Part shown: piece by piece, positions 5,158 through 36,070 of the stretch
How positions within the stretch are numbered: position 1 is the first letter of the stretch
Layout: the number at the start of each line of letters is the position of its first letter
From: a virus
Strand: one strand, 5' to 3'
DNA length: 36,070 nt
Virus genome (UHGV): UHGV-1528002
The notes under the pieces: generated by a model
Told to the model about the DNA's origin: nothing
Databases searched by the model: none
The model's input: the letters and a program-made list of their open reading frames with translations, nothing else
Made by a program: the position numbers and the translations under genes

Positions 5158-5234
5158 TTACCGTTGAGGTAATAATTATGCGTATTTGGTTTGATGTCAA
5201 TAGATATGAGTTAAGAAAATTACCTATTAGGTAA
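5158..5234. promoter_or_regulatory. Left operator pair (OL-like): TTACCGTTGAGGTAA (5158-5172) and TTACCTATTAGGTAA (5220-5234)
   Basis: Two copies of the TTACCT-N3-AGGTAA palindrome flanking the leftward early promoter, immediately downstream of the repressor gene. Confidence 0.6.
5172..5200 (-). promoter_or_regulatory. Leftward early promoter (PL-like)
   Basis: Minus strand: TTGACA (plus 5195-5200), 17-bp spacer, AATTAT (plus 5172-5177); the last T of the -10 is the first base of operator 5158-5172. Confidence 0.5.
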
Positions 5235-5291: not shown

Positions 5292-5876
5292 TTATTGTTT
5301 GTTTTTTTCGTTCTGGTTGATGACAAATTCAATGTAACTTTCGATCTTTGCTTTCTCGGTTTCGGGTAACAATGCGTAGCGCGAGCGGTCATAGTTGATG
5401 GTCGCAGGGTCGTGCGGGTGAATCAGTAATTCATAGCCGTGACGCCCGAATGCGGATGCAACATTCTCCAGGGTGGAAATGGAAACGCTGACCTCATTGT
5501 TTAACAGGCGGCTGATTGTCACCTGGGCGACGCCGGATGCGCGGTGAAGTTTTCCCTGAGTTGAAAGGTCGCGGCTTTCGCTCATCCAGCGTTCCAGGTT
5601 GTGAGCCGCCAGCTGACCAATGTCGCTTGGGCCGACAGGCTGAAAACCTTCCTGAGAAAGCGAGCGATCGATATCAAGCCAGTTACGTGGTTTATTGGCG
5701 GCAGCTTCAATTTTTCGCGCAACCTGGTCGCCGATAACCTTCTTGCCAAGAGCCCAGCGGTTTACCAGATTTGCCTGAGTTCCAAGTTTTTCTGCCATCC
5801 GCGTCTGAACACCATTGAATTCACGGTCGATCAAGTCGTTGAGATTTTGCCTGCGGACGTCCTGGATACTTTTCAT
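5292..5876 (-). CDS. Immunity repressor, tandem helix-turn-helix type, no recognisable autocleavage domain
   Basis: Two HTH-like segments (TRMAEKLGTQANLVNRWALGKK and HRASGVAQVTISRLLNNEVSVSISTLENVASAF); divergent from a Cro-like gene and flanked by palindromic operators; no Ala-Gly/Ser-Lys peptidase motif seen. Confidence 0.7.
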   Translation of the reverse strand: MKSIQDVRRQNLNDLIDREFNGVQTRMAEKLGTQANLVNRWALGKKVIGDQVARKIEAAANKPRNWLDIDRSLSQEGFQPVGPSDIGQLAAHNLERWMSESRDLSTQGKLHRASGVAQVTISRLLNNEVSVSISTLENVASAFGRHGYELLIHPHDPATINYDRSRYALLPETEKAKIESYIEFVINQNEKNKQ

Positions 5877-5931: not shown

Positions 5932-5994
5932 TTACCCAACAGGTAAATGCACCTCATGGGTAACTATCCTTGATTTTTGTTACCTTATGGGTGA
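5932..5994. promoter_or_regulatory. Right operator region (OR-like): TTACCCAACAGGTAA (5932-5946) and degenerate TTACCTTATGGGTGA (5980-5994)
   Basis: Palindromes in the 154-bp divergent region between repressor and cro-like genes; TTGATT at 5970-5975 is a -35-like hexamer for the rightward promoter (-10 not cleanly assignable). Confidence 0.55.
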
Positions 5995-6030: not shown

Positions 6031-6261
6031 ATGAGCGATAACGGACATTTCGATTTCAAAAAGCACTGGCTTGCACTTACTCCGGATGAGCGTGAAGCCT
6101 TCGCACAGGAAGCCGGAACGACGAGTCACTATATCCAGACTCACTTAACAGGTAAGCGCAAAATGCCAGGTAATGTATTGATGGATGGGCTTTTTAAAGC
6201 CTGTAAATCAAGACAATGGCTGCGCTCAAAAGCAGAACTGGCATACTTCTTCTACTCATGA
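6031..6261 (+). CDS. Cro-like regulator, YdaS family
   Basis: 76 aa, divergent from the repressor; LTPDEREAFAQEAGTTSHYIQTHLTGKR resembles YdaS-type Cro-like HTH proteins. Confidence 0.6.
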   Translation: MSDNGHFDFKKHWLALTPDEREAFAQEAGTTSHYIQTHLTGKRKMPGNVLMDGLFKACKSRQWLRSKAELAYFFYS

Positions 6262-14959: not shown

Positions 14960-15036
14960 TGGCGTGGCATGCAGGATTCGAACCTGCGACCAACCGCTTA
15001 GAAGGCGGTTGCTCTGTCCAACTGAGCTAATGCCAC
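14960..15036 (-). tRNA. tRNA-Arg, anticodon UCU, CCA encoded
   Basis: Minus strand folds as a cloverleaf: acceptor GTGGCAT/ATGCCAC, D-stem GCTC/GAGC, anticodon stem ACCGC/GCGGT with loop CTTCTAA, T-arm GCAGG-TTCGAATC-CTGC, discriminator G plus CCA. Confidence 0.85.
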
Positions 15037-32141: not shown

Positions 32142-32774
32142 TTAATGCAGTTTATCTTTGCTTATAACCAGTAGTCTGTGGGTATGCACATCTTTATCAC
32201 TGCCCCAACAGAAATCAGCCCACTGGCTATAGAAATCATCCCATGATGTCATGAAGCTAAGAGGTCTATCTTCTTCAGAGCCATCTGAAACGTATACATT
32301 ATATCCCGGGGTGTTTATAGCCCAAGAAATCATTCTTTCCCAGAATCTTCTCCCATCGATTGTTTGTTGCTCATCAGATACAACGATCGCATATTGCTCT
32401 AGGAAGAACTGAAAAAAAATCTGAGGCAAACCATGAACAGCACGGTCATGAATAACATTAGGCGTACGCCATACCATGATCTGCGTACATGTTCTTTTGG
32501 CTTCGACGATATCTTCCCGAAAGATTAACTTAACCGCATACACCGTTTCTGGAGTATCGCTGGTAGTAATCATTCTGTAATGATCGCCATTACAAGATTT
32601 TACAAGGCGATAACCATAAGGTGTTGTGAATCCCGGAAGAACGAAATCAACCACACCTTTCGCTAAGTAGCTTTCGGTGTGACTAGTGTTCTTCTCAGAC
32701 ATGTTCAGTTTTCTATCGAAATCTGCTTCTGGGATAATGTATGGCATCGCTTTTCTTGTTGTATTTGTTCTCAT
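32142..32774 (-). CDS. Hypothetical protein (210 aa) under an operator-controlled promoter
   Basis: Strong GGGAGGA RBS; AT-rich; no recognised domain; promoter with overlapping operator immediately upstream. Confidence 0.6.
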   Translation of the reverse strand: MRTNTTRKAMPYIIPEADFDRKLNMSEKNTSHTESYLAKGVVDFVLPGFTTPYGYRLVKSCNGDHYRMITTSDTPETVYAVKLIFREDIVEAKRTCTQIMVWRTPNVIHDRAVHGLPQIFFQFFLEQYAIVVSDEQQTIDGRRFWERMISWAINTPGYNVYVSDGSEEDRPLSFMTSWDDFYSQWADFCWGSDKDVHTHRLLVISKDKLH

Positions 32775-32833: not shown

Positions 32834-32876
32834 TTACCCTTGAGGTAATAGTACGCTATTCACCCCCAGTCTGCAA
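32834..32876 (-). promoter_or_regulatory. Promoter with overlapping operator for the 210-aa gene
   Basis: Minus strand TTGCAG (plus 32871-32876), 17 bp, TACTAT (plus 32848-32853), then TTACCTCAAGGGTAA (plus 32834-32848) starting at the last T of the -10. Confidence 0.55.
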
Positions 32877-32919
32877 TCTGTACAGAATTATTTAAAGGCA
32901 CGTCCCTGTGCCGCCGCCG

Positions 32920-33606
32920 TCAGAAGAACCCTGCCTTGTCGTTGATGTACTCCGCGTGGGTCTGGATATCACGCAGGCATTTACTCACACCGACGATGTA
33001 GCAGAACATGGTGGTCAGTTCCGCCGCCGCGCCCGATACGTCATGCCCGTCTTCCTGTAACTGGTTCAGCAAATTCATCAGCAGTGAGTTCTCCGTCAGG
33101 CCGAGAACACCAGACGGCGAATGAATCAGGCTGCGGTAGCCGGGCTTCAGCGGGGCACTGTAGGTTTTGTTCTCTATCTTCATCGCCTGCATCACTGCTG
33201 ATGCTGTGGCGTTTGCAACCTGGTCGGCAACCATCTTTATGCGTTCTTCCTGCGGGAGCGAGTTTTTAATGTAACTTCCGGTGCGGCGGATCTGAGGAAG
33301 AACCTCACCTGTAACCCATTTACGAAAGCGGTAGGGGATAGTGCCTGGTGTCACCGCATCGCGGCAGCGGAGGATCAGTGTGTAGAGGCCTGACTCGCTG
33401 ATAATATTGGTTTCGCCTTGACGACCTAAGTTAAATTTAGCCCTTTCATCATCATCAAGAGATTTGATTGACATGGTGGGGTTTGTCAGTTGAAGAGCTT
33501 TAATAACGTCTTTGGCAACAAACCAAGGATTTCCATCAATAACAATGGCTCGAATGGTTGCTTCTGATTCAAAATGAAAAACAGATGGGGTTACGTTAGC
33601 AGTCAT
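32920..33606 (-). CDS. Antirepressor, BRO-N domain with KilAC-like C-terminal domain
   Basis: N-terminal FHFESEATIRAIVIDGNPWFVAKDVIKALQL...IISESGLYTLILRC is the BRO-N pattern; ATG 33606 behind AAGGTGA RBS; C-terminal 75 aa are paralogous to the small gene at 34757-35014. Confidence 0.8.
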   Translation of the reverse strand: MTANVTPSVFHFESEATIRAIVIDGNPWFVAKDVIKALQLTNPTMSIKSLDDDERAKFNLGRQGETNIISESGLYTLILRCRDAVTPGTIPYRFRKWVTGEVLPQIRRTGSYIKNSLPQEERIKMVADQVANATASAVMQAMKIENKTYSAPLKPGYRSLIHSPSGVLGLTENSLLMNLLNQLQEDGHDVSGAAAELTTMFCYIVGVSKCLRDIQTHAEYINDKAGFF

Positions 33607-33762
33607 GGCAATCACCTTTTAGTATGGTTAATCACCACCTGAGGTGCAAATCTCGTTGGTGGTGAGACGTACAGGGTTTGCACTACCGGCTAAAAGGACC
33701 CGGCGCACCTTTCGGTGCCCCTGCACGTCCCACCATAATTCTGGCATGACTGTGCTATACGC

Positions 33763-33784
33763 ATAAAAAAACCACGTCTGGCGT
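33763..33784 (-). terminator. Terminator-like hairpin inside the antirepressor 5' leader
   Basis: Minus strand CCACG-ccaga-CGTGG followed by TTTTTTT, about 160 nt upstream of the antirepressor start. Confidence 0.45.
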
Positions 33785-33877
33785 GGTATGCGCCTTTTAG
33801 TAATCCGGGGTGCAAATCCCGGCACTGGATTTTGCCAGTGCTCAATTACTATGGCACAAGAGGAGTGCGATGTAAAT

Positions 33878-33921
33878 TTACCGCAAAGGTAATGATAAAC
33901 GCTGATAAATATAAAAATCAA
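33878..33921 (-). promoter_or_regulatory. Leftward promoter with overlapping operator driving the antirepressor leader
   Basis: Minus strand TTGATT (plus 33916-33921), 18 bp, TATCAT (plus 33892-33897), then TTACCTTTGCGGTAA (plus 33878-33892) starting at the last T of the -10. Confidence 0.5.
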
Positions 33922-33970
33922 CCGTATTTGGTTGATTGCGTTTAACGCTTGATCACCTGAAAGCAAGATA

Positions 33971-33985
33971 TTACCTTTAAGGTAA
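33971..33985. promoter_or_regulatory. Operator palindrome TTACCTTTAAGGTAA
   Basis: Exact consensus copy 21 bp upstream of the ATG of the membrane zinc-ribbon gene. Confidence 0.5.
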
Positions 33986-34005
33986 TGTTATTGTGAGGAA
34001 AAGCA

Positions 34006-34734
34006 ATGGAAGTTTTCTGGATAGTTGTTGGTGTGGTTGCGGTGATTATTTACGTTATCAACCAGAACAAGACTAAGATCTCTGATCGTACGGTCGTTAA
34101 TCATAACAAAACGATAAAGACCGAAGATGGGGAGATAACGATTAATCGTACACAGGTGATAGAACACACCTCTACTCAGTTTCAAAAAACTGGAGGTAAT
34201 GCGCCTAATATTTCCGCACCTCCTGCTTATGATAGTGCGGTAATCCAGACATATTATAAACAGCAGGAGTTAGCAAAAGAGAGGCAACTGATTCAGCCAA
34301 AGCCGTTTACAGCTGAGCTTCCACCTGGAGTGTCAACGCGTCCGGCATATCATGGAAGATTCCCTGGTGATGACATATCGTCTCAGTCATCTAAAAAAGC
34401 ACCTCAGGCAGTATCAGAGCCAGCAAGAATACCTTCTGTATCGCCGCCAAAAGAAGAATCAGCTAACAGAGTTTCAAGTGGTAGCAAGCAGTGCTTGCGA
34501 TGCAGAATAAACCTTCCATATGAAAAATTCAGGAAATCGTCAAAAAATCCAGATGGATTGACTAAGTGGTGTGCAAGGTGTCTCGATGGCCCAAAGAATA
34601 CACGCCATATGAAGTGGTGCCCAATTTGTAATGTCCGCAGAAAACGAACCAGCTTTTACCCTAATAATCAAAATGCGGACGGCTTAATGGCATGGTGCAA
34701 AACGTGCTGGGATGAGCACAAAGCGAAACGATAG
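34006..34734 (+). CDS. Membrane-anchored protein with tandem C-terminal zinc ribbons
   Basis: N-terminal TM helix (VFWIVVGVVAVIIYVI), low-complexity linker, two repeats of CxxC...NPDGL..WCxxC; GAGGAAAA RBS. Confidence 0.55.
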   Translation: MEVFWIVVGVVAVIIYVINQNKTKISDRTVVNHNKTIKTEDGEITINRTQVIEHTSTQFQKTGGNAPNISAPPAYDSAVIQTYYKQQELAKERQLIQPKPFTAELPPGVSTRPAYHGRFPGDDISSQSSKKAPQAVSEPARIPSVSPPKEESANRVSSGSKQCLRCRINLPYEKFRKSSKNPDGLTKWCARCLDGPKNTRHMKWCPICNVRRKRTSFYPNNQNADGLMAWCKTCWDEHKAKR

Positions 34735-34756
34735 GCCGCTCTTGCGGCCTTTAAAT

Positions 34757-35014
34757 TTACCGGGTTTGTTTTCGTAATTGTTCGGCACAATAGTCGAGAT
34801 GTGTTTGCAGATCCTGCATAGACATCTGTGAGCTGGTGACGTAGTTAATCAGTGCAGTCAGTTCGGCAAGTGGGCCATCGACATTAAATCCATCCTTATC
34901 GAGATCCCGGAGTAATTTCATCAAGTGCGATCCCTCCACCAGTGATCTGACGCCTCCCGGCGTGTGAATCCTTTCGGTAAATCCGTCTTCCAGTGGATAG
35001 TGATACTGCTGCAT
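34757..35014 (-). CDS. Small KilAC-like protein (stand-alone antirepressor C-domain paralog), candidate SOS-induced antirepressor
   Basis: ATG 35014 behind GGAGAAG RBS (the track's longer ORF begins at TTG 35032); about 40% identity to the C-terminus of the BRO-N antirepressor (e.g. IHTPGGV / IHSPSGV, AELT, DLQTH / DIQTH); LexA box 22 bp upstream. Confidence 0.55.
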   Translation of the reverse strand: MQQYHYPLEDGFTERIHTPGGVRSLVEGSHLMKLLRDLDKDGFNVDGPLAELTALINYVTSSQMSMQDLQTHLDYCAEQLRKQTR

Positions 35015-35033
35015 CTTATCTTCTCCATGCAAT

Positions 35034-35053
35034 AACTGTATAAATATACAGTA
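35034..35053. promoter_or_regulatory. LexA (SOS) box
   Basis: AACTGTATAAATATACAGTA: CTGT-N8-ACAG with AT-rich spacer, 18 of 20 matches to TACTGTATATATATACAGTA. Confidence 0.75.
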
Positions 35054-35090
35054 TCAAATAATTTGTTTGCTATCCAGCACGTTTTGCAAA

Positions 35091-35105
35091 TTACCTGAAA
35101 GGTAA
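35091..35105. promoter_or_regulatory. Operator palindrome TTACCTGAAAGGTAA
   Basis: Exact consensus copy in the divergent region between the small KilAC-like gene and the tail-fibre gene. Confidence 0.5.
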
Positions 35106-35209
35106 TATCTATTCATATTCACAGTCTTTCTATCCATATGTGGTTTTTCAGGTAATAGAATAACCAGATATGCGGCGCAACGGGTGCTGCGACTATCTGG
35201 AGATTTAAC

Positions 35210-36070
35210 ATGACGGTCTCAACCGAAGTTGACCACAACGAATACACAGGTAACGGCGCTACGACATCATTTCCGTATACCTTCCGTATTTTCAAAAAAT
35301 CCGACCTGGTTGTTCAGGTGTCTGACCTGAACGGGAACGTAACAGAATTGGTTCTGGATACCGGTTATACGGTAACTGGGGCGGGCACTTATAGTGGCGG
35401 TTCTGTGGTTCTTCCGTCGCCGCTTGCTGCTGGCTGGCGAATTACGATAGATCGTGTGCTTGATGTGGTGCAGGAGACAGACCTTCGCAATCAGGGAAAG
35501 TTTTTCCCCGAAGTGCATGAGGATGCCTTTGACTATCTGACGATGCTGATCCAGCAATGTTTTGGGTGGTTCAGACGTGCATTGATGAAGCCCTCTCTGC
35601 TTGCAAAATATTACGATGCAAAGCAAAACAGAATTTCTAACCTTGCAGATCCATCACTTGAGCAGGATGCTGTAAATAATCGCTCAATGCGTAATTATGT
35701 CGATGCTGCAATCGCCGGGGTTGTTGGTGGTTTTGGTTGGTTTATTCAGTATGGTTCTGGAGCAGTATACCGAACGTTCCAGGATAAGATGAGAGATATC
35801 GTCAGTGTTAGCGATTTTGGTGCAAAGGGAGATGGAATAACTGATTCTACGGAGGCGTTCTCTAATGCAGGCCACAGAGCGTTTGTTCCTAATGGCGATT
35901 TTGCAGTAAATACTCTCGAAGTTGATGTATCTTCTGTTCAAGGTATTGGGAGGATTGTTGCTGATAATGGATCTCTTATTTCAGTTTCTCGTCTACTTGA
36001 AACTGACAAACTTGTGCAGAGAAAAATGATGGAACCTTTTTTTGGTTTTCAGGGAGAAACAAACACAGAA
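35210..36070 (+). CDS. Tail fibre/tailspike, N-terminal part (CDS continues beyond the window)
   Basis: Open frame from ATG 35210 (GGAG RBS) to the window end with no stop; N-terminus MTVSTEVDHNEYTGNGATTSFPYTFRIFKKSDLVV resembles the conserved tail-attachment domain of T7-like fibres; DFGAKGDGITDST suggests the start of a beta-helix enzymatic domain. Confidence 0.7.
   Translation, partial: MTVSTEVDHNEYTGNGATTSFPYTFRIFKKSDLVVQVSDLNGNVTELVLDTGYTVTGAGTYSGGSVVLPSPLAAGWRITIDRVLDVVQETDLRNQGKFFPEVHEDAFDYLTMLIQQCFGWFRRALMKPSLLAKYYDAKQNRISNLADPSLEQDAVNNRSMRNYVDAAIAGVVGGFGWFIQYGSGAVYRTFQDKMRDIVSVSDFGAKGDGITDSTEAFSNAGHRAFVPNGDFAVNTLEVDVSSVQGIGRIVADNGSLISVSRLLETDKLVQRKMMEPFFGFQGETNTE

Follow-up and report, generated by a model that had tools for sequence, protein, structure and literature searches.

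The closest known relative of the locus studied here is the induction switch of Salmonella phage SPC32H, whose primary references are Kim & Ryu 2013 (J Virol 87:11775) and Kim et al. 2016 (PNAS 113:E2480), with the structures PDB 5D50 and 5D4Z. According to PMC7380047, which cites Kim & Ryu 2013, LexA cleaves itself, the antirepressor is then made, and the repressor is inhibited by protein-protein interaction. PMC9638917 describes SPC32H Rep as binding DNA as a tetramer, which is broken when tetrameric Ant binds two Rep dimers, and PMC9986798 describes the C-terminal tetramerization domain of SPC32H Rep as doubling as its Ant-binding domain. An Ant tetramer releasing Rep from its operator is known only for SPC32H.

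Two further observations concern the E. coli members of the group. A microcin that damages DNA induces Uetakevirus prophages of the phiV10 type 21- to 47-fold (bioRxiv 10.64898/2026.05.26.727859). When ORF4 of phage vB_EcoP_ZX5 (ZX5) was overexpressed, prophage counts fell from 1e9 to 1e6, about 1000-fold, and repressor transcripts fell by 75% (PMC9782041). Here, we analyzed a stretch of 36,070 nucleotides (UHGV virus genome UHGV-1528002), referred to as the window, for the genes, binding sites, and RNAs that may make up its induction switch.

RESULTS

Identity of the window

Judged from its nearest matches, the window is the prophage form of an epsilon15-like (Uetakevirus) temperate podophage of E. 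coli. Its flanks are 93-98% identical to Escherichia phages TL-2011b, phiV10, ZX5, and phiv142-3 and about 77% identical to Salmonella epsilon15-like phages, and all phages matching the flanks are Uetakeviruses, i.e., temperate podophages. The window ends inside the tailspike gene, tsp:

35210-36070, plus strand: N-terminal part of the tailspike gene, a 287-codon open frame that runs past the window end, divergent from ant

Relatives label the counterpart of this frame tailspike or endosialidase. Annotation as endosialidase is found in E. coli prophages that are nearly identical here (99%) and whose hosts include O2:K1 and avian-pathogenic strains. On the basis of this annotation and these hosts, the phage is probably a K1-capsule-specific epsilon15-like phage. 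The phage also contains a tRNA-Arg gene (anticodon TCT) at 14960-15036 on the minus strand.

The ant gene and its product

The original prediction had placed an 85-aa minus-strand gene behind a LexA box near the right end of the window. The open reading frame and its ATG were found as described. A GGAG lies at 35026-35023, 8 nt ahead of the ATG, and the gene is followed by a terminator shared with the convergent gene.

34757-35014, minus strand: ant, 85-aa antirepressor, ortholog of SPC32H Ant; ATG at 35014, 85 codons plus stop
34733-34750, unstranded: GC-rich hairpin terminator of convergent genes, serving ant and 34006-34734

When the 85-aa protein was compared with all PDB sequences, a single match was obtained, namely the 86-aa "Anti-repressor protein" that forms chain E of 5D50 (E = 4e-47). 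The alignment pairs residues 2-84 of the query with residues 3-85 of this chain, at about 88% identity. The protein belongs to phrog_450 in PHROGs and was found by tblastn in 35 phage records, epsilon15-like without exception. The GenBank record of SPC32H lists SPC32H_020, "ant," in the same position, divergent from tsp. Across Enterobacteriaceae, including E. coli, Salmonella, Citrobacter, Klebsiella, and others, the family comprises 136 protein clusters, nearly all of 85-86 aa; the word-indexed protein search gave almost only such stand-alone Ants, and fused forms were located via neighboring genes. Some of the clusters already bear the UniRef name "Anti-repressor protein," and the small gene is labeled "hypothetical protein" in E. 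coli phage and genome records.

Two descriptions attached earlier to this protein were revised. It had been called KilAC-like, to be checked by HMM search against KilAC/ANT models; neither the 85-aa protein nor the larger Bro-N protein described below matched Pfam ANT/KilAC (PF03374) at E <= 0.1, and the C-terminal domains of both are phrog_450. It had also been regarded as a truncated, C-domain-only paralog and, as such, the unusual element of the locus. The small Ant is, however, the sole form in SPC32H and epsilon15, and 85-86 aa is the norm of the family. The truncated-paralog reading was dropped, the stand-alone Ant of 85-86 aa being the canonical form.

The LexA box and a putative ant promoter

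The near-perfect LexA box expected upstream of ant was confirmed, and a putative promoter was read from the sequence next to it.

35034-35053, minus strand: LexA (SOS) box, AACTGTATAAATATACAGTA on the plus strand and TACTGTATATTTATACAGTT on the gene strand, 18/20 to consensus
35048-35076, minus strand: putative ant promoter, with -35 TGGATA (35076-35071), a 17-nt spacer, and -10 TACTGT (35053-35048)

The box differs from TACTGTATATATATACAGTA at 2 positions, and no other site in the window comes within 3 mismatches of this consensus. Matches at that level were obtained in none of 100 shuffles, with a chance expectation of 0, and a chance origin of the box was thereby ruled out. The core CTGT-N8-ACAG occurs at three sites in the window, and only the one in 35034-35053 has an A/T spacer. 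On the minus strand, the order of elements is TGGATA, 17 nt, TACTGTATATTTATACAGTT, 7 nt, GGAG, 8 nt, and ATG. The distance to the ant ATG is 19 nt from the 20-mer, or 21 nt from the ACAG core, and the 22 bp given previously was slightly off. The box lies about 157 nt from the tsp ATG. As read from the sequence, the putative -10 TACTGT coincides with the left arm of the box, and the predicted ant promoter would be overlapped by the LexA site. A simple sigma-70 scan made no call at this promoter.

Spacers between ant and tsp were aligned for 8 phages first and then for 11 loci, with Ant identities as low as 64%. In both sets, the central 8 nt of the box vary between conserved CTGT and ACAG arms, and the position of the box relative to ant is conserved in the related loci. 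The 11 loci have in common the position of the gene divergent from the tailspike gene, the LexA box, the promoter elements, and the operator palindrome next to them, and the CTGGA of the putative -35 is invariant in all of them. In the Klebsiella/Pluralibacter loci L006, L010, and L012, the left arm reads ATGT instead of CTGT and is accompanied by an adjoining one-base insertion; LexA control may be weaker there. The 207-bp ant-tsp spacers of SPC32H and SPC32N differ by a single base, through which the right arm of the LexA box, ACAG in SPC32H, reads AAAG in SPC32N. This right-arm mutation reportedly makes Ant constitutive and SPC32N lytic.

The repressor and its candidate operators

The immunity repressor is encoded near the left end of the window.

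5292-5876, minus strand: rep, 194-aa immunity repressor, homolog of SPC32H Rep, with no S24 peptidase domain

Rep matched 5D50 chain A, "Repressor," over its full length (E = 4e-42), and also the C-terminal fragment 5D4Z. In agreement with the description of this protein as having two HTH units and no LexA/CI-type peptidase motif, Pfam recognized HTH_3 (residues 106-147) and, more weakly, a YdaS-type HTH (residues 21-61), and no Peptidase_S24 was detected in Rep by the same search. Identity to SPC32H Rep is 42% overall, 53% over residues 1-72, and 37% over residues 96-194. Rep homologs were found in 36 phage records and Ant in 35, and the phages concerned are the same set. The divergence of the supposed partners from SPC32H is uneven, with 88% identity for Ant, 42% for Rep, and 37% for the Ant-binding C-terminal half of Rep. 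Because this Ant-binding part is far less conserved than Ant, a contact between Ant and Rep in the window phage is something that we only infer.

The palindrome TTACC-N5-GGTAA is present at 15 sites in the window at <=1 mismatch, compared with 0.6 expected, an excess of about 25-fold.

136, 5158, 5220, 5932, 5980, 6317, 8263, 8325, 12150, 12168, 15359, 32834, 33878, 33971, and 35091: TTACC-N5-GGTAA sites
5932-5946 and 5980-5994, unstranded: two operator palindromes between rep and the divergent cro-like gene 6031-6261
35090-35106, unstranded: palindrome ATTACCTTTCAGGTAAT, candidate Rep operator in the ant-tailspike spacer, with the TTACC-N5-GGTAA core at 35091-35105; invariant in relatives

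The sites lie mostly in intergenic spacers, and those at 5158, 5220, 5932, and 5980 flank rep. The product of 6031-6261 matches phrog_35. In SPC32H, the same motif flanks its own rep. The motif is likely the Rep operator, and the distribution of these candidate operators implies that Rep may control many transcription units, including those of the late region. In the epsilon15 record, the spacer site equivalent to 35090-35106 is annotated as a repressor-binding site. This palindrome lies 14 nt upstream of the putative ant -35, and it is a possibility that Rep also influences the expression of ant or tsp through it.

The Bro-N paralog

A larger protein with an Ant-type domain is also encoded in the window.

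32920-33606, minus strand: large antirepressor paralog, 228 aa, Bro-N (about residues 18-104) fused to an Ant-type C-terminal domain (147-224)

The Bro-N domain was detected by Pfam with E = 1.5e-19. The 85-aa protein had been said to align with the C-terminal domain of this product, and it does: its residues 2-79 align without gaps with residues 150-227 of the Bro-N protein (GTG-start numbering; 147-224 from ATG 33606), at 40% identity over 78 residues (E = 8e-16), and both proteins match phrog_450. The paralog gene is present in TL-2011b, ZX5, phiV10 (frameshifted), Tyrion, several Klebsiella phages, and a Pluralibacter prophage, and is absent from SPC32H and epsilon15. In one metagenomic relative, an ORF6N N-terminal domain replaces Bro-N. 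The Rep and small Ant of ZX5 are identical to those of the window, and the Bro-N protein of ZX5, ORF4, is 83% identical to the 32920-33606 product.

Two neighboring genes were also noted. The plus-strand gene 34006-34734, located between the Bro-N cassette and ant, encodes a 242-aa protein (phrog_6762) with C-terminal cysteine-rich repeats that show weak matches to zinc-ribbon regions of endonuclease VII, HNH, and Lar-like families; its TL-2011b counterpart is recorded only as a misc_feature, "similar to hypothetical protein," without a CDS. Directly downstream of the Bro-N gene, 32142-32774 on the minus strand encodes a 210-aa protein that matches phrog_1349 and had no match in Pfam. An operator palindrome (32834-32848) lies between these last two genes.

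IsrK and C4 RNAs upstream of the Bro-N gene

The region ahead of the Bro-N gene contains two RNA elements, a promoter, and repeated short target sequences.

33848-33892, minus strand: isrK promoter and operator, with -35 TTTACA (33876-33871), an extended -10 TGcCATAGT ending at 33848, and the operator at 33878-33892 abutting the -35
33765-33841, minus strand: IsrK-type sRNA (RF01394, 67.4 bits versus a gathering score of 50), with an intrinsic terminator at 33771-33787
33793-33816, minus strand: upstream C4 targets within IsrK, TTTGCAC (33816-33810) and CTAAAAGG (33800-33793)
33655-33740, minus strand: C4 antisense RNA (Rfam RF01695, 77.8 bits versus a gathering score of 45)
33615-33650, minus strand: downstream C4 targets, TTTGCAC (33650-33644) and CTAAAAGG (33622-33615)
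33971-33985, unstranded: second operator palindrome, beside the start of the plus-strand gene 34006-34734

IsrK and C4 lie directly upstream of the Bro-N gene on the same strand. Among the relatives examined, both RNAs were found in every one with the large gene and in none without it, and C4 likewise lies upstream of the antirepressor gene in six related loci. The isrK promoter has 17-nt spacing between -35 and -10 and ends 7 nt ahead of the first base of IsrK. Its operator, -35, and -10 are conserved in seven loci. This conserved operator at the promoter agrees with the earlier statement that the full-length antirepressor is itself under operator control, binding by Rep being presumed. The more distinctive control of the paralog, the pair of RNAs, had been missed.

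Two stretches of C4, CCTTTTAG from the loop and GTGCAAA, each have a complementary target sequence that is present twice, and the downstream CTAAAAGG copy at 33622-33615 covers the Shine-Dalgarno sequence of the Bro-N gene. The C4 loop sequence is CCUUUUAG, and the target copy at the ribosome-binding site is CUAAAAGG. The loop and both target copies change together, a covariation that extends over six loci, five of which differ from the window. The second target pair is GTGCAAA/TTTGCAC in the window versus ACGCCAA/TTGGCGT in TL-2011b, and this difference suggests that the window may carry an immI-type specificity distinct from that of TL-2011b.

A 39-codon open reading frame (33747-33628, minus strand) overlaps C4, stops 21 nt ahead of the Bro-N start, and is without a clear Shine-Dalgarno sequence. 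Its position resembles that of icd of P1 and orf45 of Gifsy-1. In TL-2011b (locus L001), positions 325-392 match the Rfam sar RNA at 44.8 bits versus a gathering score of 43. The match is absent from the window and suggests that a relative carries a P22-type antisense RNA at another place.

DISCUSSION

Proposed mechanism

The lysis-lysogeny switch of the window is very probably of the SPC32H type, in which SOS acts through LexA on Ant and through Ant on Rep. In the lysogen, host LexA bound at 35034-35053 would overlap the ant -10 and silence ant, and Rep would occupy the TTACC-N5-GGTAA operators. Upon DNA damage, activated RecA would promote the self-cleavage of LexA and Ant would be made. Ant would then bind Rep, break its DNA-binding tetramer, and free the lytic promoters, with Rep itself left uncleaved. 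We observed directly the site, the genes, their orthology to the crystallized Ant-Rep pair, the synteny, and the conservation of the box. The central claim of the original prediction, a LexA-repressed small antirepressor acting against a repressor that cannot cleave itself, is supported by the orthology to SPC32H Ant and Rep, the conserved box, and the literature; LexA binding, Ant-Rep binding, and the lack of Rep cleavage in the window phage are expected by orthology.

The best surviving alternative, which we nevertheless regard as improbable, is that ant is SOS controlled but its product has a target other than its own Rep. Such a target could be the repressor of another resident prophage, by crosstalk in trans, or Ant could have another SOS-related role, with induction of the window phage proceeding via the Bro-N protein or some other route. 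Consistent with this possibility, the C-terminal domain of Rep is only 37% identical to that of SPC32H, compared with 88% for Ant, and it was the Bro-N protein that was tested in ZX5, where it favored lysis. Antirepressors that act across prophages are documented in the Gifsy and Fels systems (PMC3121763). By contrast, homologs of Ant and Rep occur in exactly the same phage set, SPC32H and epsilon15 have the small Ant and no Bro-N paralog, and the Bro-N paralog bears the same Ant-type domain. These points favor Rep of the same phage as the target of Ant.

It is still less probable that a Bro-N antirepressor gene was duplicated and that the 85-aa gene is the decaying C-terminal part left of the copy, with a LexA-like palindrome that is incidental or serves the tailspike promoter. 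The 85-aa protein does match only the C-terminal domain of the neighboring 228-aa protein, and the box does lie in a spacer common to ant and the tailspike gene. However, the 85-86-aa form is kept in 136 clusters, occurs in phages without the large paralog, and is the functional form that was crystallized. The distance from the box to the start codon is 19 nt for ant versus about 157 nt for tsp, the position of the box relative to ant is conserved, and such a match is unexpected by chance.

Classical induction, in which RecA would stimulate Rep self-cleavage and ant would be dispensable, has the default paradigm on its side with no sequence support found for it, and it is very unlikely given that Rep is without a Peptidase_S24 or LexA/CI-like C-terminal domain and is a homolog of SPC32H Rep, in which an HTH-like domain plus a tetramerization domain make up the C-terminal part. 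Rep of SPC32H reportedly undergoes no RecA-dependent cleavage.

A possible second tier

In addition to the SPC32H-type switch, a second tier can be envisaged. Loss of Rep would free the operator that abuts the isrK promoter and turn on the operon of isrK, C4, and the Bro-N::Ant-C gene, and translation of the large antirepressor would be gated by C4 pairing at its ribosome-binding site, as in P1 immI. The window may hold a two-stage antirepressor relay built on one protein fold. The LexA-gated Ant would act first, and the C4-set Bro-N::Ant-C, with the same Rep-binding domain, would follow after Rep inactivation. We put this relay forward tentatively and consider it less likely than not. The Rfam matches to isrK and C4, the conserved operator, the covariation of loop and targets, and the result of ZX5 ORF4 overexpression support the second tier. 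Small and large Ants recur together in elements of E. coli, Enterobacter, Klebsiella, and Pluralibacter, a pairing of which no description was found in literature searches. If true, the relay could lock the lytic decision through positive feedback; alternatively or additionally, it could provide epsilon15-like prophages that are otherwise homoimmune with a second immunity specificity of the P1 kind.

The value of these results lies mostly in annotation, in that a small gene labeled "hypothetical" is the ortholog of a structurally characterized antirepressor. Of 5426 complete E. coli genomes, 592 match the region 32900-35215, K1 and avian-pathogenic strains among them, and at least 80% of the region is covered in 113 of the 592. 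SOS-inducing drugs or bacteriocins would accordingly be expected to induce such prophages via LexA and Ant. Beyond annotation, the LexA-gated Ant beside an RNA-gated Bro-N::Ant-C offers a modest lead on layered control of prophage induction.

Comparison with known systems

The original prediction had likened the locus to coliphage 186 (Tum) and Gifsy-type prophages. The logic is indeed the same: 186 Tum and the Gifsy/Fels-2 systems likewise have a LexA box before a small antirepressor gene remote from the immunity region, and a repressor that is not cleavable (Shearwin 1998; Lemire 2011, PMC3121763). The kinship lies elsewhere, as the closest relative is SPC32H Ant. No Tum/DinI-type family was present among the Pfam or PHROG matches of Ant, and, judged from these matches, the Tum and Gifsy/Fels-2 proteins are analogues of Ant and not members of its family.

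The likeness to P1/P7 immI (c4-icd-ant) and to Gifsy-1 isrK-orf45-anrP concerns the Bro-N paralog only, where IsrK and C4 precede the antirepressor gene (PMC4825925; PMC12197685). The Bro-N locus shares with P1/P7 immI the a1b1/a2b2 logic, in which two short targets are repeated up- and downstream of C4 and cover the ribosome-binding site. The small open reading frame that overlaps C4 is a candidate counterpart of icd and orf45, which are translationally coupled to the antirepressor gene. The Bro-N locus differs from P1/P7 immI and Gifsy-1 in that its promoter has a conserved Rep operator and in that no antQ-like gene was seen near it, and the C-terminal domain of its product has the SPC32H Ant fold, unlike P1 Ant. 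The study of ZX5 (PMC9782041) overlooked both the small LexA-controlled ant, which was annotated as hypothetical, and the RNAs.

The closest system remains SPC32H. The window phage is of the same genus and has an orthologous Ant (88%), a homologous Rep, ant divergent from tsp, a LexA box in the same place, and the identical operator motif TTACC-N5-GGTAA. It differs from SPC32H in its host, E. coli, and in its Rep, which has diverged to 42% identity. Compared with both SPC32H and epsilon15, the window adds the isrK-C4-Bro-N::Ant-C cassette and two genes between the injection-protein genes and ant. The LexA-gated Ant switch is already published for SPC32H as a crystallized system and is hence not new; the only mildly new aspect is the possible two-tier layout, a modest lead, in which the small Ant known from SPC32H stands beside a larger protein with the same Ant-type domain.
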